Source: an uncultured Planctomycetales bacterium (GTDB taxonomy: Bacteria > Omnitrophota > Gorgyraeia > Gygaellales > Profunditerraquicolaceae). From it: 38,485 nucleotides of DNA. Below, piece by piece: positions 2,373 to 37,374 of this stretch. Location: positions 1 through 38,485 of the forward strand of contig CAZEBD010000003.1 of NCBI GenBank assembly GCA_964510625.1, written 5' to 3'. The position numbers were made by a program, and so were the translations under genes. Every line of letters begins with the position of its first letter. The stretch's first letter is position 1. The notes beneath the pieces are model-generated. The model made no database searches and was not told the origin of the DNA. It saw only the letters and a list, made by a program, of their open reading frames with translations.

Positions 2373-2385
2373 CTCAAATAATACT

Positions 2386-8313: not shown

Positions 8314-8327
8314 CCAGGAGAATGTAA

Positions 8328-8441: not shown

Positions 8442-8453
8442 GAGGTGATCATT

Positions 8454-8705
8454 ATGCCATTTTTTGAGTCAATTGAGAAGATGGATCCGAAACATGTTGA
8501 TTTAGAAAGAGCCAGGAAATCTTTGCGGGAAGAGCTTGAAGCGGTTGATTTTTATCAGGAGAGAATAGATGCTACTGATGATGATTCGCTTAAAAAATTA
8601 CTTGCGCACAATATGAATGAAGAAAAAGAGCATGCGGCGATGCTTATAGAATGGATCAGAAAGAATGACCTTGTGCAAAACAAGATGTTTGATGAGCACG
8701 ATTAG
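8454..8705 (+). CDS. Encapsulated-ferritin-like (EncFtn family) protein with no encapsulin partner in the window
   Basis: 83 aa with AGGAGGTGA upstream. EELEAVDFYQERIDATDD..LKKLLAHNMNEEKEHAAMLIEWIRKND closely parallels the R. rubrum EncFtn core as I recall it (EELEAVDWYDQRVDA...ILAHNRDEEKEHAAM.LEWLRR.D). This includes the Glu and ExxH metal ligand positions. Confidence 0.65.
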   Translation: MPFFESIEKMDPKHVDLERARKSLREELEAVDFYQERIDATDDDSLKKLLAHNMNEEKEHAAMLIEWIRKNDLVQNKMFDEHD

Positions 8706-8717
8706 GAGGTGATTGTT

Positions 8718-8924
8718 ATGCCAAGAGGAGATGGAACTGGCCCTAGAAACCAAGGTCTTGGGATGGGAAGAGGTATGGGGATGGGTAGAGGCAGAAGGGG
8801 CAATGCGGGCCCGGGAGGAAATTGTGTATGTCCTGCTTGCGGAGAAAAGGTTGTCCACCCGGCGGGTACGCCTTGCGCTTCAATGAATTGCCCTAAATGC
8901 GGGATAAGAATGGTAAGGGAATAA
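8718..8924 (+). CDS. DUF5320-motif / RG-rich / zinc-ribbon mini-protein
   Basis: 68 aa. MPRGDGTGPRNQGLGMGRGMGMGRGRRGNAGPGG followed by CVCPACG...CPKCG (two CxxC pairs). The first 27 nt match the internal repeat at 7153 at 25 of 27 positions. Confidence 0.6.
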   Translation: MPRGDGTGPRNQGLGMGRGMGMGRGRRGNAGPGGNCVCPACGEKVVHPAGTPCASMNCPKCGIRMVRE

Positions 8925-8934
8925 GGATTAAATT

Positions 8935-9540
8935 TTGGAATATGAAGTTCTTGAAAATCATAAAAGGTATTTAGAAAGAGTCAACTTTTACCGAAGTCAT
9001 GGGTATGACTTAGAAAAGGAAAGAGATTTTATCCTCAATAAATCCCTGCCTATTTCTAAAGAAATTCTTGAAATCGGGACCGGTAAAGGCCACTTTACGC
9101 TTGCTTTAGCAAAGCGAGGCTATAGTTTTATCAGTATAGATATCTCTATGCAGGAACAAGAGATTGCTATGTTGAACTTGCGTTATTTTGGTCTGGAAAA
9201 GCAAGTTGTTCTTAAAATCGAAGATGCGGCAGTCTTGAGTTTTCCGGACCAAAGTTTTAATACTATCTTTTCTATTAATGTATTTCACCACCTTAAAAAA
9301 CCACAAGCGGTTTTAGGCCAAATAATCCGTCTTTTGCGCAATGGCGGTAAGGTGGTATTAAGCGATTTCAGTAATAAAGGGTTGGAGATAATTAACGCCT
9401 GCCATACTTCCGAAGGCCGCAGGCATGATTATTTTAAACATCGCTTAAACGAGGCGAAGGAGTATTTTATCGCGGCAGGTTTTAATGTAAAAAAGGTTCA
9501 AAGCGAAGTTCAAGAAGTGCTTATTGCTGAACGGATTTAA
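8935..9540 (+). CDS. Class I SAM-dependent methyltransferase (tandem paralogue 1)
   Basis: 201 aa with a TTG start. Motif I ILEIGTGKGHFTLALAKRG, then FNTIFSINVFHHL and GGKVVLSDF. Confidence 0.7.
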   Translation: MEYEVLENHKRYLERVNFYRSHGYDLEKERDFILNKSLPISKEILEIGTGKGHFTLALAKRGYSFISIDISMQEQEIAMLNLRYFGLEKQVVLKIEDAAVLSFPDQSFNTIFSINVFHHLKKPQAVLGQIIRLLRNGGKVVLSDFSNKGLEIINACHTSEGRRHDYFKHRLNEAKEYFIAAGFNVKKVQSEVQEVLIAERI

Positions 9541-9561
9541 GGCTAAAAAAAGGATTAAACC

Positions 9562-10203
9562 TTGGATAATGAAATTCTTGAAAATCATAAAATATATTTA
9601 GAGAGAAAAAAGCTTTATCAAAGTTTTGGTTACGACATAGAGAAGGAAAGAGATTTTATCCTAGAGCAGGCCAAGCCTCTCTATGGGAGGATTCTTGAAG
9701 CCGGGACCGGTAAGGGTAATTTTGCGCTGGCTTTAGCTAAAGCCGGGTATTCTTTTGTTACTTTTGATATATCCGCAGTTCAGCAGCGTTTTGCAAAGTT
9801 AAATATAGCGCATTTTGGTTTCCAGGCGCAGGTAGATTTCAGGATTGAAAACGGCGAACATACCAGTTTTTCTGATGGTAGTTTTGATACCGTCCTTTCT
9901 ATCAATGTTATTCATCATCTGCGCAATCCCCATCAAGTACTTGATGAATTAATTAGGCTGCTTTCACAAAATGGAAAATTAATTTTAGCGGATTTTACCG
10001 AAGAAGGTTTTAAAATTATGGATAAGATCCACGCTCTTGAAGGCAATAAACATGAAGTGGGTAAGGTTAAATTAATAGATGCTCAGGCCTATTTAAGGGA
10101 AAAGCGTTTTTTGGTAAGAAGTATCCAGAGTATGTATCAATGTGTATTAATTGCAAGCAGGGACTTAAATAAAATCAATGATCATTTCAATTGCCAGCGG
10201 TAA
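9562..10203 (+). CDS. Class I SAM-dependent methyltransferase (tandem paralogue 2)
   Basis: 213 aa with a TTG start in the same context (AAGGATTAAA-n-TTGGA). ILEAGTGKGNFALALAKAG, then FDTVLSINVIHHL. It shares the N-terminal block ILENHK.YLER...Y.S.GYD.EKERDFIL with the upstream paralogue. Confidence 0.7.
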   Translation: MDNEILENHKIYLERKKLYQSFGYDIEKERDFILEQAKPLYGRILEAGTGKGNFALALAKAGYSFVTFDISAVQQRFAKLNIAHFGFQAQVDFRIENGEHTSFSDGSFDTVLSINVIHHLRNPHQVLDELIRLLSQNGKLILADFTEEGFKIMDKIHALEGNKHEVGKVKLIDAQAYLREKRFLVRSIQSMYQCVLIASRDLNKINDHFNCQR

Positions 10204-11032
10204 GGGCGGCACAGGTAAAACTACGGTTGCGGTTAATTTGGCGTTATCCATTGATAACGTGCAGTTTCTTGACTGTGATGTTGAGGAGCCTAACGCCCAC
10301 ATTTTCTTAAAACCGGTAATCAAAAAACAGGATAAAGCTTATATTCCGGTTCCGGAGATTGATGATTCAAAATGCGTTTATTGCGGCAAATGCGCTAAGG
10401 TTTGTGTTTATAATGCAATAGCGGTACTTCCGGGGAAAGATGGGAAAAAAGGGACTACTTTGGTATTCGCGAATTTGTGCCACGGCTGCGGCGCCTGCAG
10501 TGCTCTTTGCCCTGAAAAGGCAATAAAAGAAGTAAATAGAGAGATCGGGGTAGTTGAGATAGGTAATTGCGGAAAAATAGAATTTATTCATGGGTTGCTG
10601 AATATCGGCGAAGCAATGTCTCCGCCGCTCATTCGCCAGGTTAAAGAGCATATTAATCCTAAAAAAACCGTCATCATTGATGCTCCCCCGGGCACGTCTT
10701 GCCCTGTAGTTACTTCTGTTAAGGACAGTGATTTTTGCGTGTTAGTTACCGAGCCTACGCCTTTTGGCCTAAATGACTTGATTTTAGCGGTTGAGGTTTT
10801 GAGAAAATTAAAGATCCCCTTTGGGGTAGTTATCAACCGCTCGGATTTAGGAAATAATAAAACAGAAGAATATTGTAAGCAAGAAAATATTTCCGTTTTG
10901 ATGAGGATACCGTTTAAAAGAGAAATAGCCATGGCTTATTCAAAGGGGGAGGCGATTGTTCAGGCATTTCCAGAATATAAAAAAGATTTCCAGAGGCTTT
11001 TTAAGCTAATTAGAGATGGAAAATTTAGTTAA
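10178..11032 (+). CDS. MinD/ParA-type P-loop ATPase with an inserted 2x[4Fe-4S] ferredoxin domain
   Basis: 284 aa. Deviant Walker A SGKGGTGKTT, then CVYCGKCAKVC and CHGCGACSALCP, then IIDAPPGTSCPV. Confidence 0.8.
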   Translation: MIISIASGKGGTGKTTVAVNLALSIDNVQFLDCDVEEPNAHIFLKPVIKKQDKAYIPVPEIDDSKCVYCGKCAKVCVYNAIAVLPGKDGKKGTTLVFANLCHGCGACSALCPEKAIKEVNREIGVVEIGNCGKIEFIHGLLNIGEAMSPPLIRQVKEHINPKKTVIIDAPPGTSCPVVTSVKDSDFCVLVTEPTPFGLNDLILAVEVLRKLKIPFGVVINRSDLGNNKTEEYCKQENISVLMRIPFKREIAMAYSKGEAIVQAFPEYKKDFQRLFKLIRDGKFS

Positions 11033-23251: not shown

Positions 23252-24346
23252 ATGAATAAAAAATTTACGGATTTAGATATAGGTAACTTAAGAATTAAGA
23301 TACCGATTATTCAGGGTGGGATGGGGGTGCGCGTATCTTCTTCTGCGTTAGCTTCGGCAGTATCCAATGAAGGGGCACTGGGAGTGATTGCTGCGGTCGG
23401 GTTAGGGGAGGAATGCGGTAATGAAAAGCGGGATTACAAGATGCGTTCGCGTGATGAGTTCACTAATATCATCAGAGATACCCGGAGGATGACCAAAAAT
23501 CCTTTTGGCGTCAATATTATGTCGGTGCTGACTAATTATGATGAGTTAGTGGAAGCCGCTCAGGCTGAATCGGTGGATGTGATTATTTCCGGTTCCGGTT
23601 TACCGCTGCGCCTGCCGGCTTTGATTAAGAATGCCCGGACTAAGCTTGTTCCGATTGTTTCCTCCGCCCGGGCAGCGCAGATTATTTGCAGTACCTGGGC
23701 CAGGAGGTATAAGCGCCTGCCGGATGCTTTTATTGTTGAAGGGCCGCTTGCCGGCGGGCATCTGGGTTTTAGCCTGGCTGAGCTTGCCGATGGAAAGCAT
23801 TTTTTTCTGGATAGAATTCTGGCTGAGGTATTAGCGGTGGCGCGCGCTTTTGAGAATGAGCAGAAGCGGATCCCGGTGATTGCCGCCGGAGGGATTTTTG
23901 ACGGTAAAGATATTGCCAGGGTCATGCGCTTAGGCGCCAGCGGAGTGCAGATGGCCACGCGTTTTGTTTGCACCAATGAATGCGATGTTTCCCCGAATTA
24001 TAAAGAGGCATATCTTAATGCGAAAAAAGAGGATATTGTGGTGATTCAGAGCCCGGTTGGGCTGCCGGGACGGGTAATCCGTAATGAATTTGTTAAGAAG
24101 GTAACCGAGGGGGTCAGGGTGCCTTTTGCCTGTGAGTATAAATGTTTGTATACTTGTGATGCTAAAAAAGTCAATTATTGTATTGCCAAAGCGCTGTTAA
24201 ATGCTTACCGGGGCCAGATGGATAAGGGGTTTGCCATGTGCGGCAGCAATGCCTACCGGATAAAAACGATCGTCCCGGTTAAGGATTTAATTGATGAATT
24301 GGTTAGAGAAACAGAGGTTTATTTAAATACTTTAAATGAAGAATAA
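23252..24346 (+). CDS. Nitronate monooxygenase / FabK-like FMN-dependent oxidoreductase family protein
   Basis: 364 aa. PIIQGGMGVRVSS, VEGPLAGGHLG, IPVIAAGGIFDGKDIA and GASGVQMATRF. Confidence 0.75.
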   Translation: MNKKFTDLDIGNLRIKIPIIQGGMGVRVSSSALASAVSNEGALGVIAAVGLGEECGNEKRDYKMRSRDEFTNIIRDTRRMTKNPFGVNIMSVLTNYDELVEAAQAESVDVIISGSGLPLRLPALIKNARTKLVPIVSSARAAQIICSTWARRYKRLPDAFIVEGPLAGGHLGFSLAELADGKHFFLDRILAEVLAVARAFENEQKRIPVIAAGGIFDGKDIARVMRLGASGVQMATRFVCTNECDVSPNYKEAYLNAKKEDIVVIQSPVGLPGRVIRNEFVKKVTEGVRVPFACEYKCLYTCDAKKVNYCIAKALLNAYRGQMDKGFAMCGSNAYRIKTIVPVKDLIDELVRETEVYLNTLNEE

Positions 24347-25358
24347 ACTACTTCTAAAAAAAGCACTGGTAACCGGCGGCGCAGGTTTTATCGGCTCGCA
24401 TTTATGCCAGGAGCTTCTTGCGCGCGGTTTTCAGGTTGCCGTAGTAGATGATCTTTCTACCTCCCAAAAAGCAAATATTTCCGCAATAATTAAGCATAAA
24501 AATTTTAAGTTTTATAAAGGCTCTATTTTGGATAAAAAGCTGATGCGCCGGCTTATCCATGGCTGTGATATTGTTTATCATATGGCAGCCGCGGTCGGGG
24601 TAAAATATATTCTGGCCAATCCTTTGGGTTCGATCATTACTAATATTAAAGGAACTGAGATCGTCCTTGAGCTGGCCGATCAATACCATAAAAAGGTTGT
24701 GCTTGCCTCTACCTCTGAAGTTTACGGTAAGCATATCTGCCAGCCATTTAAAGAAGATGATGACCGGATAATGGGCTCGGTAAGTAAAAGCAGGTGGAGT
24801 TATGCCGAAGCCAAGGCCATGGATGAATTCTTAGCCCTGGCCTATGCCAAAGAGCGGGGCCTGGCGGTAGTCATTGTGCGGTTCTTTAATACTGTCGGCC
24901 CCCGGCAGACCGGCCGCTACGGCATGGTGCTTCCGGGATTTATCCTTAAAGCTCTTCAGAATAAACCGATCACTGTTTATGGGGATGGCTCGCAGATGCG
25001 CTCATTTACTTATGTCAAAGATGCGGTAGAGGCGGTAGTGGCGTTAAGCCTTAAAAAACAGGCCGAAGGCCAGGTCTTTAACATCGGCGGGGCGGCCAAT
25101 ATTTCGATCAAGAACCTGGCGCATAAAGTTAAACAACGGGTAGGCTCAAAGTCTGAGGTAATTTTTGTCCCTTATTCAGAGGCTTACCAGGGGAAAGCTA
25201 AGGATTTTGAGGATATGCCCTGCCGGATCCCGGACACCCGGAAATTGCAGAAAATGATCGGGTTTAAACCGGAATTTTCTATTGAGGAGATAATCGATCT
25301 GACGGTAGATTATTTCCGGAAAGTGAAAAAATGCGGATTAAAAGGCTGTTTGCGTTAA
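24336..25358 (+). CDS. SDR-family NAD-dependent sugar-nucleotide epimerase/dehydratase
   Basis: 340 aa. VTGGAGFIGSHL Rossmann motif, STSEVYG and catalytic YAEAK. Confidence 0.8.
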   Translation: MKNKLLLKKALVTGGAGFIGSHLCQELLARGFQVAVVDDLSTSQKANISAIIKHKNFKFYKGSILDKKLMRRLIHGCDIVYHMAAAVGVKYILANPLGSIITNIKGTEIVLELADQYHKKVVLASTSEVYGKHICQPFKEDDDRIMGSVSKSRWSYAEAKAMDEFLALAYAKERGLAVVIVRFFNTVGPRQTGRYGMVLPGFILKALQNKPITVYGDGSQMRSFTYVKDAVEAVVALSLKKQAEGQVFNIGGAANISIKNLAHKVKQRVGSKSEVIFVPYSEAYQGKAKDFEDMPCRIPDTRKLQKMIGFKPEFSIEEIIDLTVDYFRKVKKCGLKGCLR

Positions 25359-26155
25359 TTCCAGCTGCAATATTATCTGTCCATACTTTGTCTTTTGCCC
25401 AGGAGCGCCCGGAGATCGATGCCAAGCTCAGGGAGGAGCCGGTAAGGTACCTCGAAAACAACCAGTTTTTCTTGAGCTCTTATTATGAATACAGCGCAGT
25501 AAAACAAAACGGAAGAAAAGGCCAGTGGAGGCTTTTTGCCAATACTATCGGGTACGCATTCGCCAATGGCTTTACCCCTTACCTTGAGGTGGATTCCTGG
25601 GACCGTTTCCATAATCAAGACCAGCTTTTTAACCTGGGTGCGTATCTTAAATTTAAAAATTTTTCTTATCTGCATTCTGAGATCGGGTTTGGCAACGATA
25701 TCACCTACCTGCCGAGATTCCGCTTCCTGCAGGAGTATGAACATAAGTTGGCCGGAAACTTATCCTGGCAGGCCGGCTATAAATACCTGAATTATTCTGC
25801 AAATGATGTCCACACCGCCTATCCGGGATTAATTTATTATTTCGGGGACAGCTACTTAGGCGCTTTTTATAACCTTTCTTTTACTGAAAGCCGCGGCGCG
25901 GCCCAGTCGGCGCTATTTAAAGGTAATCTTGCTTTGAACCGGTGGGTTGATTTATGGTTCGGCGCTGCGGTGGGGCAGCGGCTTTATGATATTAATGTTT
26001 TAAAGGCCGCCGATCAGAACGGGTATATTATTTATACCGGATTTGATTTTAAAATTAACACAAGCCTGCGCCTGCGGTTAGGGTTTACTTACGGCAAAGA
26101 AGAGCCCGCTTTTATCTCGCGCAGCATCGATTACGGGCTTACCTTGAAGTTTTAA
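25331..26155 (+). CDS. Outer-membrane beta-barrel protein, YaiO-like
   Basis: 274 aa. Signal peptide MRIKRLFALIPAAILSVHTLSFA, alternating aromatic/hydrophilic beta-strand pattern, and a C-terminal ...YGLTLKF with terminal Phe typical of OMPs. The YaiO family assignment is from memory. Confidence 0.55.
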   Translation: MRIKRLFALIPAAILSVHTLSFAQERPEIDAKLREEPVRYLENNQFFLSSYYEYSAVKQNGRKGQWRLFANTIGYAFANGFTPYLEVDSWDRFHNQDQLFNLGAYLKFKNFSYLHSEIGFGNDITYLPRFRFLQEYEHKLAGNLSWQAGYKYLNYSANDVHTAYPGLIYYFGDSYLGAFYNLSFTESRGAAQSALFKGNLALNRWVDLWFGAAVGQRLYDINVLKAADQNGYIIYTGFDFKINTSLRLRLGFTYGKEEPAFISRSIDYGLTLKF

Positions 26156-26159
26156 AATA

Positions 26160-27119
26160 ATGTATAACTACCATATTGATTTTTTCGGGCAGCTGAATAA
26201 GTTTATGGCCGCTGCCGCTTTTTTAACCAGCGCTTTTATTATTGTTTATGTTGCTTCTAAAGGGGTGTTTATCCGGATGAAGGCCAGGCACCTGGTGCTT
26301 TTAAAAAAACGCCTGGAGAGTGTGGCGGCTTCGAAAAGCTTAAATGTCGGCGGAAGATGCGAATCGTTGATCGGCCGGATCGATCCGCTGGAGGCAGCGG
26401 AGGTAATCCATGGCAATAAGCTGGTGCTTTCCAGCAAGCTTAATGAAGAGCTTAAAGCCTGTTTTGTCACGGAAAATAAAATTGATGAAATTAAGCGGAT
26501 CGCCCTAAAGTCAAGAAATAAGTGGCGCCGGATCCAGGCGATCATCAGCCTGGGGGCTTTGGATGACCCGGCAGTTTTGGGGGTGTTAGAAAGCGGCCTG
26601 GCGGATAAAGATGAAAATGTGGCTTATTTTTCTATGCTGGCTTTAGGCCAGATCAAAAACCTGCCATCGGCAAAGATCCTTTTGAATTTTTTAGATAAAC
26701 ATATCTATAGCGGATACAAGATCGTCTCTTTGTTGGAAGATTTTCCTCCTTTGATTGTGGAGGAGGTGGTAAAAACCACGCAAAGCCATGACCCGTTTGT
26801 GCGTTTTTGGTGCCTCAAGCTTTTAGCTAAATTTAAACCGGTCCAGTATTTAAGCCAGATCCTGAACTTGACTAAAGATCCTTCCGGTGATGTGCGGGCT
26901 GCCGGATGCGAATGCTTAGGAGAGATGGGGGCCTTTCAGGCAAAAGATGCGCTTATCTTTTGCCTGAAGGATGAAGTTTGGTTTGTGCGCATGCGCGCAA
27001 TAAGGGCACTGGCTAAAATTTTAAAGAGCGAATGTATTCCTTTAATTACCCCGATGCTTAAGGATAGCGACCTGCTGGTTAGGGAGAGCGCGAAAAACGC
27101 GATTGCGCTGAATCATTAA
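26160..27119 (+). CDS. Membrane-anchored HEAT-repeat protein
   Basis: 319 aa. One N-terminal TM helix (AAAFLTSAFIIVYVA), then repeated units such as RRIQAIISLGALDDP, DENVAYFSMLALGQI, DPFVRFWCLKLLAKF, SGDVRAAGCECLGEMG, VWFVRMRAIRALAKI and LLVRESAKNAI. Confidence 0.65.
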   Translation: MYNYHIDFFGQLNKFMAAAAFLTSAFIIVYVASKGVFIRMKARHLVLLKKRLESVAASKSLNVGGRCESLIGRIDPLEAAEVIHGNKLVLSSKLNEELKACFVTENKIDEIKRIALKSRNKWRRIQAIISLGALDDPAVLGVLESGLADKDENVAYFSMLALGQIKNLPSAKILLNFLDKHIYSGYKIVSLLEDFPPLIVEEVVKTTQSHDPFVRFWCLKLLAKFKPVQYLSQILNLTKDPSGDVRAAGCECLGEMGAFQAKDALIFCLKDEVWFVRMRAIRALAKILKSECIPLITPMLKDSDLLVRESAKNAIALNH

Positions 27120-27120
27120 T

Positions 27121-28521
27121 ATGCCTCCGGATAAAGTTTCCTATATTATTTTCATTATTTTCTTTGCGTATTTTATCATTTTGAATCTGTATTATATCAG
27201 CCTGACGATTATCGCCCTATTTGAAAATAGGAAGAGAGCAAAAGAGGATGCATCCGAGGATTACCGCAGGCTGGCGGTTTCAGCTTTTACCCTGCCGGTA
27301 AGTTTTATCATCCCGGCGCATAATGAAGAGGATTGGATCGCGGATTCGCTCAAATCAGTGCTTAACCAGGATTACCCGGAGTTTGAGGTAATTGTGGTAG
27401 ATGATTGTTCTGTTGATAAGACATTTAAGATTTTAGAGGAGTTTTTAAAACTTAAGCCTGTCAGCAAAGATTATGTAGAGCGTTTTACCTGTTCAGAGGG
27501 GGACAGTGTTTTTTCCTCTTTGGCTTATCCCCAGGTTACGGTTTTAACTAAAATCAACGGCTGCAAAAAGGCCGGAGCGTTAAATTCTGCTTTGAATCTG
27601 GCCAGGTATAAGTATGTCTGCACTATTGATGCGGATACGGTACTGGAGCCGGACGCTTTAATCAAGGTTATGGCGCAGGTGGAAAAAGACCCGGACAAAA
27701 TTATCGGGGTCGGGGGTTATTTTGGGCTGGTCAATGGTTTTCATATTAAGGATGGCCGGATCATTAAAAAAAGTTTTTCGCCTAACCCGATCATCGCCTA
27801 TCAGAATGTGGAGTATATCCGCTCACTGGCGGTCCACCGGGTGGCCTGGAGTAAATACAATGCGATGCCGATTGTCGCCGGGGGTTTTAGCATCTGGCGC
27901 CGGGATATTCTTCTGGAGTTAGGGGGATACGCTTCGGATTACAGTTCGGAAGACCTGGAATTTACCTTAAGGGCGCATGATTATATCATTGAGAATAAAA
28001 AAGAGGGTTTACGGATTCTGATGCTGCCGTACTTAGTCGGCTGGACAGAAGGCCCTTCAAATTTACTGTCTTTTATTGTCCAGCGTGACCGCTGGCAGCG
28101 GGTAATCAATGAGGCGGTTTTAAAATACCGGCATATGCTCCTGCGCCCCAGCCATAAGGCGCTGGCATTTCTGACCCTGCCGTATTTATTCTTTTATGAA
28201 TTTTTGGGGGTGTTTGTCGAACTGGCTGCCTTGTTTCTTGCGGTGTGGGGAGCCTTGCAGGGATTACTGGACATTAAGGTATTTCTGACTTTTATTGTTT
28301 TTATGATCCTGTGCAATGCGCTGATCTCGCTGGCCGCATTATTCATTTTTGTCCGCGATCAGGCGGTGTTGAGGACGCGCGACGTAATTTATTTTATCAT
28401 CCTTATTTTCCTGGAATTTTTCTGGTACCGCTGGTTAATGACTATCGCCAAATTATTAGGCACAATCCATTATTTTAAAGGCGTGCGTACTTTTGATAAA
28501 TACCAGCGCCGGCAAAGATGA
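27121..28521 (+). CDS. Processive family-2 glycosyltransferase (polysaccharide synthase; PgaC/cellulose/chitin-synthase-like)
   Basis: 466 aa. N-terminal TM, VSFIIPAHNEE, VIVVDDCSVD, TIDADT and SEDLEF. QRDRWQRV corresponds to the Q-x-x-R-W motif of processive synthases. Several C-terminal TM helices. Confidence 0.8.
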   Translation: MPPDKVSYIIFIIFFAYFIILNLYYISLTIIALFENRKRAKEDASEDYRRLAVSAFTLPVSFIIPAHNEEDWIADSLKSVLNQDYPEFEVIVVDDCSVDKTFKILEEFLKLKPVSKDYVERFTCSEGDSVFSSLAYPQVTVLTKINGCKKAGALNSALNLARYKYVCTIDADTVLEPDALIKVMAQVEKDPDKIIGVGGYFGLVNGFHIKDGRIIKKSFSPNPIIAYQNVEYIRSLAVHRVAWSKYNAMPIVAGGFSIWRRDILLELGGYASDYSSEDLEFTLRAHDYIIENKKEGLRILMLPYLVGWTEGPSNLLSFIVQRDRWQRVINEAVLKYRHMLLRPSHKALAFLTLPYLFFYEFLGVFVELAALFLAVWGALQGLLDIKVFLTFIVFMILCNALISLAALFIFVRDQAVLRTRDVIYFIILIFLEFFWYRWLMTIAKLLGTIHYFKGVRTFDKYQRRQR

Positions 28522-29411
28522 AAACTGTCTGGCAGGAAAGAGTTTTATATTTTATTTTTACGGCGATCCTTGCGGTATTACTCATCGATAGCCTGGGGGA
28601 GTTCGGCGGCCTGGCCTGGGCCCGGCATATTGTTTTTGATTACGCCAAGATATTCCTTCCGGTGATTCTTTTGATGATGCATTGTGTATATTCGCTTTTT
28701 TTAAAAAGGGGCCTGGCCTTAATTTTTTTTATTTGTTCCTGCGGTTTAATTGCCGAAATTATCGGCTTAAAAACCGGCCTTTTATTCGGCAGCCATTACC
28801 GCTATAATCCTGACAGCTTATTGATGTTTTCCCGGCTTCCTTTGTTTGGACAGGGTATGTTTTTTTGCGGCGTGCCGCTTTTAGTGGTTTTTTACTGGGC
28901 AGTTTTTATCTATGCCGGGTATAGTATTTCGAATTCGTTTCTATTCTGGCAAGGGCAGGGCAAGCCATCGCATCAGGCAAAAAATACTGCTTTATTGGTT
29001 AAGCTTATTTTGCTGGATGCTTTTATCGTCTTAGCCCTTGACCTGGTGATGGATCCGGTGCTGGTCAATGCCGGCAATTGGGCCTGGCATAAACCGGGAG
29101 CTTATTTCGGTGTCCCGGCGGGTAATTTTTTAGGATGGTTTGCTGTGGCTATTGTTTTAAGCGGCGCATTCAGGATCTTTGAGTATAATTTTCCGGATCA
29201 GATAAAAAAACTAACCCCGCTGCCGATTTTATTTCCCGTGCTTTCTTTGTCGGTGGTTTTTATTCTGGCTGTAGGTATCGCTCTGTACAAAAGTTTATAC
29301 CTGCTTATTCCGGTAGCGGTTTTTACCATGCTGCCGGTTATCCTGGCGAATTTCTATCTTTTTTTTACCGGCAGAAATGGTTTGGCATATTACTCAGCCG
29401 GTAAAAGATAA
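28518..29411 (+). CDS. Polytopic membrane protein, carotenoid-biosynthesis-protein (CruF/DUF422)-like family
   Basis: 297 aa, about 8 TM helices. GLKTGLLFGSHYRY and WAWHKPGAYFGVPAGNFLGWF resemble the family signature as I remember it. 4-nt overlap with the GT2 gene. Confidence 0.45.
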   Translation: MKTVWQERVLYFIFTAILAVLLIDSLGEFGGLAWARHIVFDYAKIFLPVILLMMHCVYSLFLKRGLALIFFICSCGLIAEIIGLKTGLLFGSHYRYNPDSLLMFSRLPLFGQGMFFCGVPLLVVFYWAVFIYAGYSISNSFLFWQGQGKPSHQAKNTALLVKLILLDAFIVLALDLVMDPVLVNAGNWAWHKPGAYFGVPAGNFLGWFAVAIVLSGAFRIFEYNFPDQIKKLTPLPILFPVLSLSVVFILAVGIALYKSLYLLIPVAVFTMLPVILANFYLFFTGRNGLAYYSAGKR

Positions 29412-29584: not shown

Positions 29585-30901
29585 ATGACAACGGAAAACA
29601 GGTCTAAAGAGGAGCTTTTATCAGAGGTCGGGGCGTTGGAAGAGCGGCTTAGGCAGCTGAGGCTGGGCCAAAAGTGGCAAACCGATATTATGTCTGTGGT
29701 TGCTGACTGGGTCTGGGAGGTAGATGTAGGCGGATTATTTACTTACAGCTCGCAGAAAAGTACCGATATTTTAGGATACTCCCGTGAAGAAATAATCGGC
29801 AAGACGCCGTTTGATTTTATGCCGCCAGAGGAAGCTAAGAAAGTGGCAGAAGTATTTTCGAAGATTGTTGCCGAGAGAGTGCCGATCAAAGACCTGGAAA
29901 ATTGGAATATCCGGAAGGATGGCAAAAGGATCTGTTTATTGACTAATGGCGTAGCGATCTGGGATGAAGCCGGGAACTTTAAAGGCTACCGCGGGGTGGA
30001 TAAAGATATTACCGAACGCAAAGAAACCCTGGAGAAACTGAGCAGTTATGAAACCCGTTTAAGTTACCTGACTAAGTATGCTAATGATTTTATTATTCTT
30101 CTGGATAAGGATTTTCGTTTTCTGGAAACCAATCTCAGGGTAAGCGATTTTTACGGGTATACTCAGGAGGAGCTGATCGGTATGCAGGCGGCGGATATCC
30201 GGGCTCCGGAGGTGCGCGCGGCTTTCCAGCAGCAGGTAAAACCGGCACAGCTGACCGGCCAGGCAATTTATGAAACTATTCATCAGCGTAAAGACGGGAC
30301 CAAGTTCCCGGTTGAGATCAGCTTGCGGACCATAGATGCCGAAGGCAAGCGCCTGTATCTGGCAGTGATCCGGGACATTACTGAGCGCAAGAACGCTGAA
30401 GCGGCCCTGCAAACTACTGAAAACCAGATGAAGTTATTGGTTGAGAATATTAAGGTGGGGATTACTTATATGGATAAAGATTATAAAATTATTTTCACCA
30501 ATAAAGCGCAGGGTGAGCTTTTTAAGCGGCCACCGGAGGAGTTTGTGGGTAAGTTTTGTTTTGCGGAGTTTGAAAAACGCGATGCGATTTGTCCGCATTG
30601 CCCGGGTAAAAAAGCGATGGTCTCCGGCTGTCATGAAAGTTCGGAGGCCACCGGCGTGCGCAATAGCGGTGAAAAATTCCAGGTGCGTATCAATGCCTTT
30701 CCTTATTTTCAAGTGGATGGTAAAATCGCCGGGTTTATTGAGACGGTTGAGGATATTACTGAACGTAAAAAACTGGAGGAAGCGACCAAAAAACACGTGC
30801 AGGAACTGGAGGTCTTTTACAAAGCGGCGATGGGCAGGGAGGAGAGGATCCTGGATTTAAAAAAAGAAATTGACAGCCTGAAAAAAGAACTAAAAAAGTG
30901 A
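29585..30901 (+). CDS. Cytoplasmic triple-PAS sensor protein with no recognisable output domain; ends in a short conserved coiled-coil helix
   Basis: 438 aa. N-terminal coiled coil, then three PAS units each closed by (D)ITERK (GVDKDITERK, VIRDITERK, VEDITERK). The third contains 4 Cys (C..CPHCPG..C). No HisKA/HATPase, GGDEF, EAL, HD or HTH follows, only HVQELEVFYKAAMGREERILDLKKEIDSLKKELKK. Confidence 0.8.
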   Translation: MTTENRSKEELLSEVGALEERLRQLRLGQKWQTDIMSVVADWVWEVDVGGLFTYSSQKSTDILGYSREEIIGKTPFDFMPPEEAKKVAEVFSKIVAERVPIKDLENWNIRKDGKRICLLTNGVAIWDEAGNFKGYRGVDKDITERKETLEKLSSYETRLSYLTKYANDFIILLDKDFRFLETNLRVSDFYGYTQEELIGMQAADIRAPEVRAAFQQQVKPAQLTGQAIYETIHQRKDGTKFPVEISLRTIDAEGKRLYLAVIRDITERKNAEAALQTTENQMKLLVENIKVGITYMDKDYKIIFTNKAQGELFKRPPEEFVGKFCFAEFEKRDAICPHCPGKKAMVSGCHESSEATGVRNSGEKFQVRINAFPYFQVDGKIAGFIETVEDITERKKLEEATKKHVQELEVFYKAAMGREERILDLKKEIDSLKKELKK

Positions 30902-31408
30902 AAGCAGAGATTCCGGTATCTACCGGTGAAGTTTGGGCGGCTCAGCAAGGGATAATCCTGAGGACAGATGCAATCGGTTCCTGTATCGGGTTAGCTGCTT
31001 ATGATGCCAGGAGTAAAATTGGGGCGCTGGCGCATATTATGCTTCCCGGGGTTTCCCCGAATAGCGGCCTGGCATATAATACCAAATATGCTGTTGATGC
31101 CTTAGGGGGATATGTTGTTTAAGATGAATCGTCTGGGCGCCGATGCCCGGCGCATTGAGGCCTGCCTGGTGGGGGCAGGTAATGTCCTGCAGGATAAGCA
31201 TGATAAAGTCTGCTCTAATTTGATTGCCTCAGTTTCGGATATTCTTGATGGACATAGCATAAAGGTGGTTGCCCGGGCATTAGGGGGGATGTTGCGCAGG
31301 TGTATGTTTATTAATATCGGAAGCGCCGAAGTCCATTATTCCGAAGGCGATGGCCCGGATAGATTATTGTATAGATGGGAGTATAACTCAGGAGAAGCCA
31401 ATGAATAA
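30898..31408 (+). pseudogene. cheD: CheD-like chemoreceptor glutamine deamidase; reading frame broken by a 1-nt shift at a G5 run
   Basis: Two abutting ORFs (30898-31122 and 31112-31408) together align by eye along the whole length of T. maritima/B. subtilis-type CheD. Matches include AIGSCIGLAAYD..KIGALAHIMLP (catalytic Cys and His contexts), KYAVDALG|DMLFKMNRLGA, EACLVGAGNV and ALGGMLRRCMF. Removing one G from GGGGG (31105-31109) restores one ~169-aa frame. Confidence 0.75.
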
Positions 31409-32558
31409 AACACATCAGGAGTCTCTTCAGGATTCGTTTGCTTTTTTTTCGCAAGCCGCCGCGGTAATTGTATCTTTTACAGGGTGCATAGTGTTATTGG
31501 GGTGGCTGTTTGATATCACGGCGATGAAAAGCGTATTCCCGGGGCTGGTGACGATGAAGCCAAATACGGCTTTATGCATTATGCTGGCCGGCCTGGCGTT
31601 ATGGTCGGCCCAGGAAAAACGGATAAATAAAATTAACCTGTTGGTTACGCGCAGTTGTTGTATTTTTGTTATGGGTTTATCCTTAATTACGATCATTGAG
31701 TATGTCTATGGTGTTAATTTAGGAATTGACCAATTGATGTTTAAAGATGACCCCGGAGCTTTATTCACCACTTATCCCGGCCGGATGGCTTTGCATACGG
31801 CGGCCGGTTTTGCTCTGGTGGCTATCGCGCTGTTTTTGTCAAATTCTAAAAATAAGCGGGGTTATATTTTTATGCAGATTCTTTCTTTGTTGGTAGTAAT
31901 CCTATCGGTCCTATCTTTATTGTGGTATGTTTATGAAGTAAAAATTTTCAATTTGGGTGGCAAAAGAACCACGGTAATGGCGCTGCATACTGCGCTGGCC
32001 TTTTTACTGATTGGCCTGGGAATATTTTTTTTGCGGCCGAAACAATGGTTAGCCGGAACAATTACCAGTGATAACCTGGGCAGTAAAGTTGCCCGGCGGC
32101 TGATCCCGGTGGCGGTGTTTATTCCTCCGATTTTGGGTTGGATAAAGATCTGGGGGGAACAACATGGGTATTTGCCCAATGAATTCGGCGTATCATTTGT
32201 GGCATTGATGAACATGATCACAATAATTAGCTGTGTTATCTGGCTGGTCACTTACTTAAACCGGATTGACCTGGAACGCAGAAGGACAGAGGATATTCTA
32301 CGGGCCAGCCAGCAGCAGATGCAGGCGGCTAACCAACAGCTACGGGCCAGCCAGCAGCAGCTCAAGGCTTCTAATCTGCAGTTGATCGCCAATGAACAGA
32401 AGCTACAAGCCGAAATTGCCGAGCGTAAAAGGATAGAGGAGTTAGACGACCGGCATATTCATGAGTTGGAAGTATTTTATAAGTCAAGCGTGGGCAGAGA
32501 AGAGCGCATTATTGAACTTAAAAAAGAGATCGAAGACCTGAAAAACAAGCTTAAATGA
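31401..32558 (+). CDS. 8-TM integral membrane sensor-like protein with a Gln-rich coiled-coil tail and the same C-terminal helix as the PAS protein
   Basis: 385 aa from ATG 31401 (AGGAGAAG upstream; 8-nt overlap with cheD). The membrane part has a repeated motif before TM helices: MKPNTALCIMLAGLAL, RMALHTAAGFALVAIAL and VMALHTALAFLLIGLGI. The tail reads LRASQQQMQAANQQLRASQQQLKASNLQLIANEQKLQAEIAERK...HIHELEVFYKSSVGREERIIELKKEIEDLKNKLK. No enzymatic output domain. Confidence 0.6.
   Translation: MNKTHQESLQDSFAFFSQAAAVIVSFTGCIVLLGWLFDITAMKSVFPGLVTMKPNTALCIMLAGLALWSAQEKRINKINLLVTRSCCIFVMGLSLITIIEYVYGVNLGIDQLMFKDDPGALFTTYPGRMALHTAAGFALVAIALFLSNSKNKRGYIFMQILSLLVVILSVLSLLWYVYEVKIFNLGGKRTTVMALHTALAFLLIGLGIFFLRPKQWLAGTITSDNLGSKVARRLIPVAVFIPPILGWIKIWGEQHGYLPNEFGVSFVALMNMITIISCVIWLVTYLNRIDLERRRTEDILRASQQQMQAANQQLRASQQQLKASNLQLIANEQKLQAEIAERKRIEELDDRHIHELEVFYKSSVGREERIIELKKEIEDLKNKLK
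32298..32381 (+). repeat. Tandem 42-nt (14-codon) coding repeat
   Basis: CTACGGGCCAGCCAGCAGCAG occurs identically at 32298-32318 and 32340-32360. The units encode LRASQQQMQAANQQ and LRASQQQLKASNLQ, and a degenerate third unit follows (LIANEQKLQAEIAE). Confidence 0.9.
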
Positions 32559-33697
32559 ATATTATTACGATAACTTTAAACAATCTTTGGCACCGGAAAA
32601 TCCGGTCACTTTTAACTCTTTTGGGGGTGGGTATTAGTATTGCTGCTTTTGTCGCCATTATCGGGCTGGCTGACGGGCTTAAACATAGTTTAGTCTCTAC
32701 CTTCCAAGCCCGCGGAACTGACCTGGTAGTGATTGAAAAAGGGGTTGTCGATATTTTATCCAGCAGTATTGATGCTGCCTATAAAGATAAGCTGCAGGGG
32801 ATGCCGCTTATTGAGCAGGTTGCTCCGATACTGCTTGACCTCTATTCTTTTAAGTTTAAACAGTATTTATTGCTTTATGGCTGGGAGCCAGGTTCTTATC
32901 CTTTTAGTGAGCTTAAGCTCCGGGGTAAACTGCCGCAGAATTATGGCCAGGCAATCCTGGGGGTATTGGCGGCTAAAAGGTTAAATAAAAAGATCGGGGA
33001 TAAAATTAACCTAAAAGGGGCGGAATTTACGGTTGCCGGAATTTTTCAAAGCCAGAGTATCCTGGAGGATGGTGCGGCGATTATTCAACTGGCCCGGCTG
33101 CAGGAATTAAAGAAATCCGGGGATAAGGTTACTTTATTCAATATCAAGATTAAAACTCCTTCCGCGCAAAAATCCAGGTTTGATTATGCAAAGCTTAACC
33201 GCCAGACCGACCTGGCCCAGGTACAAATCGCCGAAGCATTTCCGGGCCTGGAGGTAAAAAATATCCAGAATTTTATTTATAACAATACTCCGATGTATTT
33301 AGTTTTTAATTTTACCTGGGCATTATCGATTGTGGCTTTTATTATCGTCATTCTGGGGATCGCTAATACCATGGCCGCCTCGGTTTTAGAACGGACACAG
33401 GAGATCGGAATACTTTTGGCTATTGGCTGGCGCGATCTGAGTATTGCCGCGATGATTTTGTGTGAAGCCATGCTGATCGGCTTATTGGGCGGTTGCGTCG
33501 GACTGGGCCTGGGTTATCTTTTGATGTACTTTTTTATTTTAAGCCCGCAGCTTTCCGGGCTTATGGCTATGCATTATGACCTGGGCTTTATCCTGCGGGT
33601 AATCGCTATTTCTGTGGGGCTGGGTTTTCTTTCCGGGCTGTATCCGGCGTTTAAGGCGATTTCCATTGAGCCGATGAAAGTGTTGCGTTATGGATAA
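32555..33697 (+). CDS. ABC transporter permease, MacB/LolC/FtsX type (periplasmic core domain plus FtsX 4-TM)
   Basis: 380 aa. N-terminal LNNLWHRKIRSLLTLLGVGISIAAFVA, a ~220-aa extracytoplasmic domain, then three C-terminal TM helices containing RTQEIGILLAIGW. 4-nt overlap with the upstream gene. Confidence 0.8.
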   Translation: MNIITITLNNLWHRKIRSLLTLLGVGISIAAFVAIIGLADGLKHSLVSTFQARGTDLVVIEKGVVDILSSSIDAAYKDKLQGMPLIEQVAPILLDLYSFKFKQYLLLYGWEPGSYPFSELKLRGKLPQNYGQAILGVLAAKRLNKKIGDKINLKGAEFTVAGIFQSQSILEDGAAIIQLARLQELKKSGDKVTLFNIKIKTPSAQKSRFDYAKLNRQTDLAQVQIAEAFPGLEVKNIQNFIYNNTPMYLVFNFTWALSIVAFIIVILGIANTMAASVLERTQEIGILLAIGWRDLSIAAMILCEAMLIGLLGGCVGLGLGYLLMYFFILSPQLSGLMAMHYDLGFILRVIAISVGLGFLSGLYPAFKAISIEPMKVLRYG

Positions 33698-34355
33698 TCA
33701 GATATTGATCGAAACAAAAGAGCTTTGTAAATATTATGCCGACGGCAAAGTGATCGCCCTGGATAAGGTCAGTTTTCATGTCCGCCAGGGGGAGCTGTTT
33801 GCGATTAAAGGCCCATCCGGCAGCGGTAAATCTACCCTGCTGCATCTGATCGGGGGCCTGGATAAACCGACCTCCGGCAGAATGTATTTTGCCGGCAGCC
33901 CGCTGTATCCGTTTTTAAGGCAAAGCGGGTTCAGGATCAGGAATGTCGGATTTGTTTTTCAGGTCTTTTACCTTTGGCCGACCTTAAATGTGCTGCAGAA
34001 TGTTTTATTGCCTTTGGTGGAATTAAAGATGGGCCAGCAGGAAAGGGTTAAAAGGGCGGATGAATTGATCTCTACCGTCGGCCTGTCCCATAAGCGCCTC
34101 AGCGCTATTCTTAAGCTTTCTGTCGGAGAGCGGCAGCGGGTAGCTATCGCCCGGGCATTAGTTACCCGTCCTAAACTGGTTTTAGCGGATGAACCGACCG
34201 GAAGCTTAGATTCCAAAAATGCCGAAAAAATATTACAGTTATTCAAAAAAATCAACCAGCAATTGGGGACAACGATTGTCATGGTTACTCACGAAAAAAT
34301 ACCGGACAGTTTCTTTGACCGTTCGATCCAGATCTTTGACGGCAGGATAAAATAA
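33690..34355 (+). CDS. ABC transporter ATP-binding protein, MacB/LolD-like
   Basis: 221 aa. Walker A GPSGSGKST, signature LSVGERQRVAIARAL, Walker B LVLADEPTGSLD and H-loop VTHE. Confidence 0.9.
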   Translation: MDNQILIETKELCKYYADGKVIALDKVSFHVRQGELFAIKGPSGSGKSTLLHLIGGLDKPTSGRMYFAGSPLYPFLRQSGFRIRNVGFVFQVFYLWPTLNVLQNVLLPLVELKMGQQERVKRADELISTVGLSHKRLSAILKLSVGERQRVAIARALVTRPKLVLADEPTGSLDSKNAEKILQLFKKINQQLGTTIVMVTHEKIPDSFFDRSIQIFDGRIK

Positions 34356-35470: not shown

Positions 35471-36598
35471 ATGCCGGAAGATAAAATTATTTTTCAAAAC
35501 CCCCAACCTAAAACTCTCTGCCTTAAATTAAGCGGCTCCTGGCTGATTACCGAGCAGGCCCCTGAGGTGGCAATGGTCATGGCCCGGATCGCCCAGCTTA
35601 AGGATATCCGCCAGGTTACTTTTGATGCTTCTGCCATCAGCCGGTGGGATAGTGCGCTGGCGGCTTTTTTATTTCGTTTGTTTAAGGAATGTGAAAACCG
35701 GCAGATTAAGATTGATCTTCAGGGGTTGCCCCAAGGAGTGCAAAAATTGCTTACCCTGGCTTTTAAAGTTAATGAAAGTTTACCGGCGCAAAAAAATGAG
35801 GCGGGGTCGTTTTTCTGCGCCGTGGCCGACAGGGTTTTAGGGTTTTTTGACGGGGCGCTGGCTCTGCTTAATTTTTTGGGGCAGATTACGGTTGCGTTTA
35901 TCCGCTTGGTCCGGGGTAAAGTTTATTTCCGGCGGGATGAATTTATGTTTATTTTACAAAGAAGCGGGGCGGATGCCTTGTTTTTAGTTTCTTTGATCAG
36001 TGTGTTGGTCGGGATCATTCTGGCTTTTATCGGGGCCACCCAGCTGAAATTATTCGGGGCCCAGATTTATATTGCCAATATCGTGGGTATCGGGATGGTC
36101 CGGGTAATGGGGGCGATGATGACGGCAGTACTGATGGCCGGACGTACCGGGGCGGCTTTTGCTGCCGAACTGGGTTTGATGCAGAGCAACGAAGAGATCG
36201 ATGCCTTGCAGACCTTAGGGGTGTCTCCGGTAGAATTCTTGGTTATTCCGCGTATTCTGGCCTTAGTGATTATGATGCCGCTTTTGACTCTCTATGCTAA
36301 CCTTATGGGTATTTTGGGTGGTTTTATTATGAGTATAAGTTTATTAGGCCTTAATCCGGTTGAATACTGGCAGCATACCCGGTCTGCGGTTACCCTGGTC
36401 AATCTTTGGGTAGGGTTGATCCACAGTTTTATTTTCGGAATTATTATTGCGGTGGCCGGGTGTTTCCGGGGGATGCAATGCGCAAGGAGTGCTGCGGCAG
36501 TGGGAGAGGCGACTACCTCGGCGGTAGTCAGTGCGATTATCAGTATTGTGTTTGCTACTGCGGTGATTACCTTTGTCTGTCAGGTTTTGGGGGTATAA
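35471..36598 (+). CDS. mlaE: MlaE-family ABC permease fused to an N-terminal STAS (MlaB-like) domain
   Basis: 375 aa. The first ~105 aa resemble STAS (LKLSGSWLI...VTFDASAISRWDSALAAFLFRL...IDLQGLPQGVQKLLTLA). The rest is MlaE-like (GAQIYIANIVGIGMVRVMGAMMTAVLMAGRTGAAFAAELGLMQSNEEIDALQTLGVSP). Confidence 0.8.
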   Translation: MPEDKIIFQNPQPKTLCLKLSGSWLITEQAPEVAMVMARIAQLKDIRQVTFDASAISRWDSALAAFLFRLFKECENRQIKIDLQGLPQGVQKLLTLAFKVNESLPAQKNEAGSFFCAVADRVLGFFDGALALLNFLGQITVAFIRLVRGKVYFRRDEFMFILQRSGADALFLVSLISVLVGIILAFIGATQLKLFGAQIYIANIVGIGMVRVMGAMMTAVLMAGRTGAAFAAELGLMQSNEEIDALQTLGVSPVEFLVIPRILALVIMMPLLTLYANLMGILGGFIMSISLLGLNPVEYWQHTRSAVTLVNLWVGLIHSFIFGIIIAVAGCFRGMQCARSAAAVGEATTSAVVSAIISIVFATAVITFVCQVLGV

Positions 36599-36603
36599 AA
36601 TCA

Positions 36604-37374
36604 ATGGAAAAATCTGTTCTGCCGGCGATCCAGGTAAAAAATCTTGATTTAAGTTACGGGGATTTTCCGGTTATGCGCAATCTGAATTTCAGCGTGAAGA
36701 AAGGCGAAATTTTTATCGTGATGGGGCACAGCGGATGCGGTAAAAGCACTTTGCTTAAGGTTTTGATCGGCTTGCATCCGCCAACATCCGGGCAAGTTTT
36801 ATATAACGGGGTAGATTTTTGGGCTCAGGATGAACTTGCCCAGCAGGGGATCATGCGCAAGTTCGGGGTATTGTATCAGGGGGGAGCCCTGTGGAGTTCA
36901 TTTACCCTGGAAGAGAATGTGGCATTGCCGCTGCAATTGTATTCGCACCTTTCACCGTCTCAGATCCGGGAGGCGGTGGAGTTAAAATTGGCTTTGGTGG
37001 GCTTGGCCGGTTACGCGGAGTTTTATCCTGAACAGATCAGCGGCGGTATGCGTAAGCGGGCAGCGCTGGCGCGGGCAATCGCCCTGGACCCGGAAGTCAT
37101 TTTTTTTGATGAGCCATCAGCCGGGTTAGATCCGGTAAGTTCACGCATGCTGGATGATTTAATTTTACAATTAAGGGATACCTTAGGCGCGACGATCGTG
37201 GTGGTTAGCCATGAGCTGGCCAGCATTTTTGCCGTCGGGGATAAAGCGGCATTTTTGGATACTGAAACTAAAAGCATGATCACTATCGGAGCCCCCAAGG
37301 ACCTGTTGGCTAATTCTAAAGATTCCCGGGTGATCCAATTTTTAACCAGAGGCAGCGCCGGACTTAATCGGTAA
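36604..37374 (+). CDS. mlaF: MlaF-like ABC ATP-binding protein
   Basis: 256 aa from ATG 36604; the upstream part of the track ORF is an out-of-frame overlap with mlaE. GHSGCGKST, ISGGMRKRAALARAI, IFFDEPSAGLDP and VSHE. Confidence 0.85.
   Translation: MEKSVLPAIQVKNLDLSYGDFPVMRNLNFSVKKGEIFIVMGHSGCGKSTLLKVLIGLHPPTSGQVLYNGVDFWAQDELAQQGIMRKFGVLYQGGALWSSFTLEENVALPLQLYSHLSPSQIREAVELKLALVGLAGYAEFYPEQISGGMRKRAALARAIALDPEVIFFDEPSAGLDPVSSRMLDDLILQLRDTLGATIVVVSHELASIFAVGDKAAFLDTETKSMITIGAPKDLLANSKDSRVIQFLTRGSAGLNR

Follow-up and report, generated by a model that had tools for sequence, protein, structure and literature searches.

A CheD clade encoded beside glutamine-heptad coiled coils: a putative sensor module outside chemotaxis

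Introduction

CheD is the deamidase of specific glutamine residues in methyl-accepting chemotaxis proteins (MCPs) and a partner of CheC, and to our knowledge no role beyond that of a chemoreceptor accessory has been described for it. What could a cheD gene do between two sensor genes, in a stretch of DNA where no other chemotaxis gene is found? The question is raised by positions 29585-32558 of the stretch analyzed here, contig CAZEBD010000003.1 (assembly GCA_964510625.1, positions 1 to 38,485 of the forward strand), from an uncultured bacterium recorded under Planctomycetales and placed in the Omnitrophota by GTDB. The whole stretch of 38,485 nucleotides (38.5 kb) is called the window below. 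A first-pass annotation of this DNA had recognized cheD between a PAS protein and a protein with eight transmembrane (8-TM) segments, and had proposed that CheD acts on the latter as a receptor other than an MCP.

Our answer is that the window probably holds one copy of a conserved signalling module outside chemotaxis, in which a specialized CheD clade acts on the glutamine-heptad coiled coil of a sensor. The pairing of cheD with such a heptad array is met again at about 130 loci, spread over many phyla. The cheD genes of the clade sit directly beside the array genes, whichever of the two is used to find the loci, and the partners are mostly PAS histidine kinases. Judged from its alignments, clade CheD is a catalytically intact member of the CheD family, with the catalytic Cys and His.

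A divergent CheD with its catalytic residues

The cheD gene is split into two open reading frames (ORFs), 30898-31122 and 31112-31408. Deletion of one G from the G5 run at 31105-31109 gives a repaired protein of 169 residues that scores 45.1 bits with PF03975 (gathering cutoff 25); the C-terminal fragment alone reaches 31.7 bits. Residues 10-148 of the repaired protein align with CheD of Thermotoga maritima (2f9z_C, E 8e-13), and Cys29 and His46 align with the catalytic residues of that enzyme. The cheD gene that had been read across one frameshift, with its GSC and AH contexts kept, is thus borne out. The two catalytic residues and the same contexts are invariant across 27 diverse members of the clade. 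The AlphaFold2 (AF2) model of an orthologue with 60% identity (P0123, predicted local distance difference test score, pLDDT, 81.5) has 2f9z_C as its top Foldseek match (E 4.7e-11, TM-scores 0.72/0.76), followed by NTAN1, YfiH and CNF, which are other Cys-dependent amidohydrolases. The profile search therefore confirms CheD, and sequence-to-structure and fold searches agree with it.

All nine NCBIfam CheD equivalogs score far under their cutoffs, the best being NF041119 with 70.6 versus 240 bits. This wide miss indicates that the CheD of the window belongs to a divergent branch of the family. Its relatives at 45-71% identity are from Omnitrophota, Scalinduaceae and other Planctomycetota, with 71% identity to P0121 and 60% to the orthologue of locus L001.

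At the frameshift the window reads GCC TTA GGG GGA TAT G, where L001 has GCC CTG GCA GAT ATG and locus L005 has GCT ATA GAG GAT ATG. Since three intact orthologues read GAT ATG at the place of GGA TAT G, the defect is a single inserted base. Upstream of the shift the gene product shares 73% identity with P0121, downstream of it 68%, and no second lesion, i.e. no further stop or indel, was found by comparison with the orthologues. Because both halves are equally conserved and no second lesion is seen, the frameshift is, as far as the sequence tells, a homopolymer sequencing or assembly error or a very recent inactivation, and not old decay. With this frameshift, the copy in the window may or may not work. 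Another clade cheD, at 550-1092 of locus L055, is interrupted by an in-frame stop within a short repetitive insertion.

Clade cheD genes and glutamine-heptad arrays lie side by side

The clade comprises about 249 of 8163 CheD-family representatives (clusters at 50% identity) that match with E 1e-30 or better. In the first three loci inspected, cheD is followed by genes for two HAMP proteins and one PAS/GAF kinase of 2127 residues, all with long A-x-[N/E]-Q-Q-L-x runs. The association was then measured in both directions. A profile of the clade, run against one genome per species, gave 80 loci from many phyla. Here 61 of 81 clade cheD genes lie at most 700 nt from an ORF that has two or more strict QQ[LIVM] heptads, against a background of 10 in 632 non-adjacent ORFs (Fisher p 1e-59). 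When arrays one or two genes off and one degenerate array are counted, and contigs that are too short are excluded, the figure is about 67 of 76 loci. In the reverse direction, a profile of the array alone, run against metagenomes, gave 80 loci with 79 array ORFs. A clade cheD was found within 1.5 kb of 55 of these ORFs, usually 0-60 nt upstream, and it accompanies 28 of the 37 array ORFs that have at least 700 nt on both sides.

The neighbourhoods of 8-TM homologues agree with this picture. The closest homologue of the 8-TM protein of the window (P0002, 57% identity) has six QQL heptads and the same C-terminal tail, and its gene is directly preceded by an intact cheD of 163 codons, with the same 8-nt overlap as in the window. 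Genes for an epimerase, YaiO, a HEAT protein, a GT2 protein and a carotenoid-synthase-like protein are common to positions 24336-29411 of the window and 9545-14636 of L001. As this contig of the closest orthologue shares the neighbouring genes in another order relative to cheD and the sensor gene, the cheD-sensor pair moves as a unit.

Pfam domains were counted in 60 partner proteins. PAS domains are found in 41 and HATPase_c in 38 of them, three HisKA families in 23, 10 and 7, receivers in 16 and HAMP in 5. MCPsignal (PF00015) is missing from the list of their 25 most frequent families, so that at most two of the 60 proteins could carry it. The genes flanking the pairs are enriched in receivers and LuxR-type regulators, and a Pfam census of 127 flanking genes gave receivers, GerE and PAS only. 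CheD itself is N-terminally fused to PAS or histidine kinase modules in at least seven of the top 150 clade representatives. In P0247, P0250, P0252 and P0313, the fusion of clade CheD to a histidine kinase runs via a coiled-coil repeat, A.LN[IL].EDLE, which is not made of QQL heptads.

No CheR or CheB catalytic domain was found in 160 loci (8 kb around cheD in the 80 genome loci and 6 kb around the array in the 80 metagenome loci). With the exception of one CheW, no MCP, CheC or other che gene lies near the pair in the window or in these loci, and clade cheD was not found in che operons. The searches were made with domain-restricted phmmer, which was sensitive enough to find the CheW in one of the 160 loci; jackhmmer with full-length CheB, CheA and Tar of Escherichia coli drifted to receiver, HATPase and coiled-coil matches. 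In the window itself, Pfam detected no CheA, CheW, CheR, CheB, CheC, CheY, MCPsignal, HisKA, HATPase_c or Response_reg in the other ORFs of at least 110 residues, and the E. coli Che proteins as phmmer queries had no match. The absence of che genes and of an MCP hairpin from the 38 kb, as first noted by eye, is thereby confirmed.

Three candidates for the conserved element of the module were rejected. A single-domain receiver 5' of cheD is present in only 11 of 73 loci. Neither the C-terminal tail nor the 8-TM domain is the link to cheD, since the proteins of loci L167-L169 carry both. These 8-TM-PAS-tail proteins have no array and no cheD within 8 kb, and the specific link is accordingly that of cheD to the array. 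The comparative evidence thus supports the idea that CheD acts on the adjacent non-MCP receptor of the window, with the correction that the conserved partner is the Gln-heptad array and not the 8-TM domain or the PAS protein as such.

A compact operon of cheD, an array-PAS-kinase gene (455 codons) and a receiver gene is found at 7989-10351 of locus L026 in Sunxiuqinia indica (NZ_WVEM01000014.1), a cultured member of the Bacteroidota. This operon would offer a tractable experimental system. The pair is also carried by three complete chromosomes assembled from metagenomes (OY787449.1, OY762428.1 and OY763926.1).

The membrane sensor of the window and its array

The AF2 model of the 8-TM protein (pLDDT 90.5) has eight transmembrane helices, the last of which runs on as a single continuous helix (residues 260-384). 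An MCP-like helical hairpin formed by array and tail was considered and rejected on account of this single helix. The protein has no match with PF00015, the MCP signalling hairpin, nor with HisKA or HATPase of Pfam. The first-pass description of eight membrane spans stands, and the terminal helix has about 95 residues; that the protein ends only in a coiled coil does not stand, as the helix bears three candidate modification sites and a conserved motif of about 48 residues.

These sites, at residues 302, 309 and 316, match [ASTG]xx[EQ][EQ]xx[ASTG]. The consensus of CheD, CheR and CheB sites is that of MCP methylation sites. The heptad of the arrays is A-x-[N/E]-Q-Q-L-x, and every heptad of the clade partners fits the MCP deamidation/methylation consensus. 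A logo of 525 heptads has A at 95%, a small residue, N at 57% or E at 39%, Q, Q, L at 99% and R, K or Q. The two Gln are fixed at positions 4-5 of this logo because the search pattern demanded QQ. When arrays are defined by their A and L positions only, positions 4-5 are QQ in 85% and EE in 1% of heptads. The partner proteins have a median of 8 heptads and up to 31 near-identical sites, and in many partner kinases the array lies at the extreme N-terminus. In many partner arrays (L005-L084), heptads with N and heptads with E alternate, which gives a period of 14 residues (AANQQLRASEQQLK).

The 8-TM domain has hundreds of homologues fused to histidine kinase, PAS, MCPsignal, GGDEF and STAS modules, and these fusions to varied outputs identify it as a modular sensor domain. 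A solved structural relative was sought with Foldseek in the PDB, with no match at E <0.1. The domain (31413-32270) belongs to no Pfam family, and its only match, with TgpA_N, is below threshold.

The PAS protein and a shared C-terminal tail

The three PAS domains of the protein encoded upstream of cheD cover residues ~40-141, 167-269 and 282-392 (Pfam, NCBIfam). As first described, it has no kinase, cyclase, phosphodiesterase or DNA-binding output: Pfam and NCBIfam found PAS domains only, and no enzymatic or DNA-binding module. The third PAS domain is PAS_10-like and has a Cys-rich insert, CFAEFEKRDAICPHCPGKKAMVSGCHE (~30540-30640, residues ~320-350), which may be a metal or redox site.

The stretch of about 48 residues that follows the heptads of the 8-TM protein, ..ERKRIEE..HIHELEVFYKSSVGREERIIELKKEI.., is nearly identical to the C-terminus of the PAS protein. 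The consensus of this tail motif is ITERKK.EE..KH..ELEvFyKa.vGREeri.ELKkei..L. According to a hidden Markov model (HMM) of the tail, the motif stands at the end of both sensors of the window and of about 40 further sensors of the PAS, HAMP or 8-TM type that have no kinase. It lies almost always within about 20 residues of the C-terminus, with one weak match 48 residues from the end. Besides the window, loci that carry it are L001, L005, L006, L007, L038, L066, L093, L133, L138 and L167-L169. It has no Pfam model and also occurs at loci with no cheD nearby. A tail query of 51 residues, which is too short for such a search, retrieved only 2 proteins from an index of 5.8 billion. The tail seems to be a module in its own right, for assembly or for output.

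Kinase-less array proteins with this tail are found in a minority of loci, and those that can be placed are mostly from Omnitrophota, with one Scalinduaceae locus. The partner of the Omnitrophota type consists of a sensor (8-TM, HAMP or dCache-HAMP), then the array, then the tail. Separate PAS-tail proteins are encoded in about half of the tail-type loci, including L001, L005, L038 and L066. The triple of PAS-tail protein, cheD and sensor is also present in the Omnitrophota locus L005. In L038 and L066, the same tail ends CheD-PASxN fusion proteins, which adjoin a dCache-HAMP-array-tail protein built like a chemoreceptor whose signalling hairpin has been replaced. The module of PAS sensor, deamidase and membrane sensor that had been proposed thus recurs as a triple in L005 and in fused form in L038 and L066. 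It is the special case of a broader arrangement, in which the array is mostly on PAS histidine kinases.

Gene order and other features of the window

The features of the locus are collected in Table 1. The genes for the PAS protein, the frameshifted cheD and the 8-TM protein lie head to tail, each overlapping the next. The stop of the PAS gene overlaps the start of cheD by 4 nt, and cheD overlaps the 8-TM gene by 8 nt when the ATG at 31401 is taken as the start. Both overlaps are as first reported, and they suggest translational coupling. Translational coupling is likewise suggested for the sensor gene, the permease gene and the ABC ATPase gene, with overlaps of 4 nt between the first two and 8 nt between the last two. 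Permease and ATPase are context only, as their neighbourhood to the cheD-sensor pair is not conserved: a MacB-type ABC transporter was rejected as a part of the module after the same genes were found 7 kb from the pair in L001. A promoter-like site in the 173-nt gap 5' of the PAS gene is a consensus match only.

Table 1. Positions of the predicted features of the cheD locus in the window
Feature	Positions	Strand	Basis or remark
3xPAS protein, cytoplasmic, 438 residues	29585..30901	+	only Pfam/NCBIfam matches are PAS
Tail of the PAS protein, residues 391-438, ITERKKLEE..KHVQELEVFYKAAMGREERILDLKKEIDSLKKELKK	30755..30898	+	tail HMM, 80 bits
Putative cheD-clade glutamine deamidase gene, +1 frameshift, repaired product 169 residues	30898..31408	+	PF03975; 2f9z_C
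Catalytic segment, Cys29 codon TGT 30982-30984 (GSC) to His46 codon CAT 31033-31035 (AH)	30982..31035	+	alignment
G5 homopolymer with one extra G, cause of the frameshift	31105..31109	+	orthologue comparison
Membrane sensor, 385 residues, 8-TM domain then one long cytoplasmic helix	31401..32558	+	AF2
Gln-heptad array, residues 302-336, ASQQQMQ AANQQLR ASQQQLK ASNLQLI ANEQKLQ	32304..32408	+	proposed CheD substrate
Tail of the 8-TM protein, residues 339-385, IAERKRIEELDDRHIHELEVFYKSSVGREERIIELKKEIEDLKNKLK	32415..32555	+	tail HMM, 79 bits
MacB/FtsX-type permease	32555-33697	+	Pfam MacB_PCD, FtsX
ABC ATPase	33690-34355	+	Pfam ABC_tran

Two further observations were made elsewhere in the window. 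Positions 8935-10203 hold two tandem paralogous genes for class-I methyltransferases with near-identical N-termini (LEYEVLENHKRYLER and LDNEILENHKIYLER); their neighbours are Fe-S, NifX-like, MinD-like and DUF2099 genes. The ORF of an MlaF-like ABC ATPase (36406-37374) shares about 190 nt with the MlaE gene (35471-36598), and the true start of the ATPase is probably the internal Met at MEKSVLPAIQ.

How the module could work, and alternative explanations

In the mechanism that we propose, CheD would deamidate exposed Gln-Gln pairs of the array to Glu. The long dimeric signalling helix would thereby be loaded with negative charge, which would shift its conformation or stability, and this altered state would determine sensor output. 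In partners of the kinase type, the array would be the input of the kinase; its place at the extreme N-terminus of many kinases suggests that the modification state itself could be this input. In the tail type, the shared tail would probably bring membrane and PAS sensors together in one complex, which would include CheD where it is part of a fusion, and the PAS proteins may gate the access of CheD to the array.

A further step, which we propose tentatively, is to regard the module as a widespread, stand-alone input layer. A dedicated deamidase of the CheD clade would write a charge pattern on the poly-(A-x-N/E-Q-Q-L-x) coiled coils of two-component and kinase-less sensors, without recourse to chemotaxis or MCPs, and perhaps without any methyltransferase. 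The change from Gln to Glu would then itself serve as the signal, or as a one-way memory or a timer that sets kinase output, and the Omnitrophota tail would assemble deamidase, PAS and membrane sensors.

Several points weigh against a module in which clade CheD acts on the array. Deamidation by the clade is a prediction from sequence. The scores of the clade lie far below the NCBIfam CheD cutoffs, and it may accordingly prefer other substrates. With neither CheR nor CheB, there would be no way back from deamidation, and this would be odd for a sensor. The array is absent at about 9 clade loci with ample flanks, and about a quarter of the array genes have no adjacent cheD. In the window, the reading frame of cheD is not intact, and with the view limited to a contig of 38.5 kb, a che system elsewhere in the genome is possible. 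Finally, a study of chemotaxis in Bacillus subtilis (PMC3513319) reports that the interactions of CheD with receptors and CheC outweigh its enzymatic activity.

In an extension of the proposed module, it would be the deamidase arm of methylation of the type attributed to MAC proteins, a class of sensors compared below. CheD would turn QQ into EE, and these residues would then be open to reversible methylation and demethylation by CheR and CheB from other parts of the genome. We regard this as rather unlikely, although there is evidence that points to it. The array of a CheB-CheR fusion kinase from Ensifer (WP_223730704.1) has the same heptad with EE for QQ, and a PAS_10-like domain follows the array in this fusion and, by our reading of the sequence, in the Sunxiuqinia partner. 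In addition, Dataset S4 of bioRxiv 10.1101/2022.05.07.491037 gives a positive phyletic coupling of +0.555 between the CheD class ched-Uncat and the CheR class cher-MAC2, where ched-Uncat may correspond to our clade; those portions of the main text that were searched do not discuss this coupling. On the other hand, the 160 loci hold no CheR or CheB catalytic domain within 6-8 kb, and the datasets of the same preprint list only cheB and cheR as MAC classes, with F1, F7, F8 and 'Uncat' as the classes of CheD. The MiST-derived classification thus has no CheD class for MAC.

It is improbable that CheD is a non-catalytic binding partner, one that would bind the Gln array as a substrate mimic and tune the sensor through its occupancy, as on the receptors of B. 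subtilis. The B. subtilis statements cited above would fit such a role, and CheD fused to PAS-tail proteins would suit a regulated docking subunit. However, the catalytic Cys and His and their GSC and AH contexts are invariant across the 27 clade members, and arrays of up to 31 near-identical sites resemble a substrate modified at many positions rather than one place for docking. That the cheD of the window is a displaced and decaying copy from a conventional chemotaxis system elsewhere, placed by accident between the sensors, would suit its frameshift and the single 38.5-kb contig in view, yet it is very improbable, as the extra base lies in a homopolymer, both gene halves are equally conserved with no further stop or indel, the 8-nt overlap is kept at the orthologous locus with cheD intact, and the association with arrays in both directions already contradicts it at the level of the clade.

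If the module works as proposed, covalent tuning of a receptor coiled coil is not confined to chemotaxis and would take place in phyla such as Planctomycetota, Omnitrophota and Bacteroidota. It would also provide a concrete biochemical handle on MAC-type proteins. As the arrays are simple repeats of up to 31 copies, and the gene of the substrate adjoins that of the enzyme, two purified proteins and mass spectrometry suffice for a direct test of the hypothesis.

Comparison with known systems

Canonical CheD, as in B. subtilis and T. maritima (PDB 2F9Z), has the same fold as clade CheD and the same catalytic Cys and His. Its known substrate, Gln in A/S-x-x-[EQ]-[EQ]-x-x-A/S within an extended coiled-coil helix, also resembles the clade arrays. 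The differences are that the clade stands apart in sequence, below every NCBIfam equivalog cutoff, and that its loci and the window lack the MCP signalling hairpin, CheC, CheA, CheW and CheY (with one CheW among the loci). The clade presumably acts on up to 31 sites along a parallel single-helix array, whereas canonical CheD has a few sites, on an antiparallel four-helix bundle.

A second group of known proteins, 8-TM MCPs and histidine kinases (P0050, P0054 and P0062, annotated as methyl-accepting chemotaxis proteins), has a homologous N-terminal 8-TM module, with 33-37% identity over most of the query. Unlike the protein of the window, they end in MCPsignal or HisKA/HATPase as output and lack a Gln array, and array-less 8-TM proteins are not linked to cheD.

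The module was thought at first to be of a kind not known to be described. Indeed, full-text search found no paper in which CheD is connected with such arrays or with histidine kinases, with an earlier mention in the 2010 work of Wuichet and Zhulin being possible; a Caulobacter paper that mentions cheD deals with the canonical gene and is irrelevant here. There is a close known relative, though, in the MAC proteins, which were reportedly defined by the same authors in that year. These are described in MiST 3.0 (PMC6943060), whose MAC1 and MAC2 profile HMMs form no part of Pfam or NCBIfam, and in bioRxiv 10.1101/2022.05.07.491037, and are reported as catalogued since 2010 and never experimentally characterized. 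A protein of 953 residues with a Gln array, at 1-3654 of locus L143, has CheW divergently encoded upstream and no cheD, and recalls the published link of a rare CheW class with MAC1.

Like the clade partners, MAC proteins are non-MCP sensors, mostly PAS histidine kinases, with tandem small-x-N-[EQ]-[EQ]-L-x heptads that fit the methylation-site consensus of receptors, and each has as its partner an enzyme taken from chemotactic adaptation. The enzyme is not the same: MAC proteins contain or adjoin CheB and CheR, whereas the clade arrays adjoin CheD, with no CheB or CheR found in the window or the 160 loci. The protein of the window also differs from MAC proteins in having no kinase and in ending in the conserved tail, while a kinase is present in 38 of the 60 partners elsewhere. 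As to the arrays, the one MAC1 example checked is the CheB-CheR fusion kinase WP_223730704.1, which is encoded on a plasmid of Ensifer adhaerens and was reached by a CheR search. Its array, AANEELR AANEELQ SMNEEYR ... SINEELQ, has Glu-Glu where the clade arrays have QQ in 85% and EE in 1% of heptads. Since this is the same heptad with Glu-Glu, the module of the window can be viewed as the Gln-encoded, CheD-paired counterpart of MAC proteins and, given this close relative, as a variant rather than a system without precedent.

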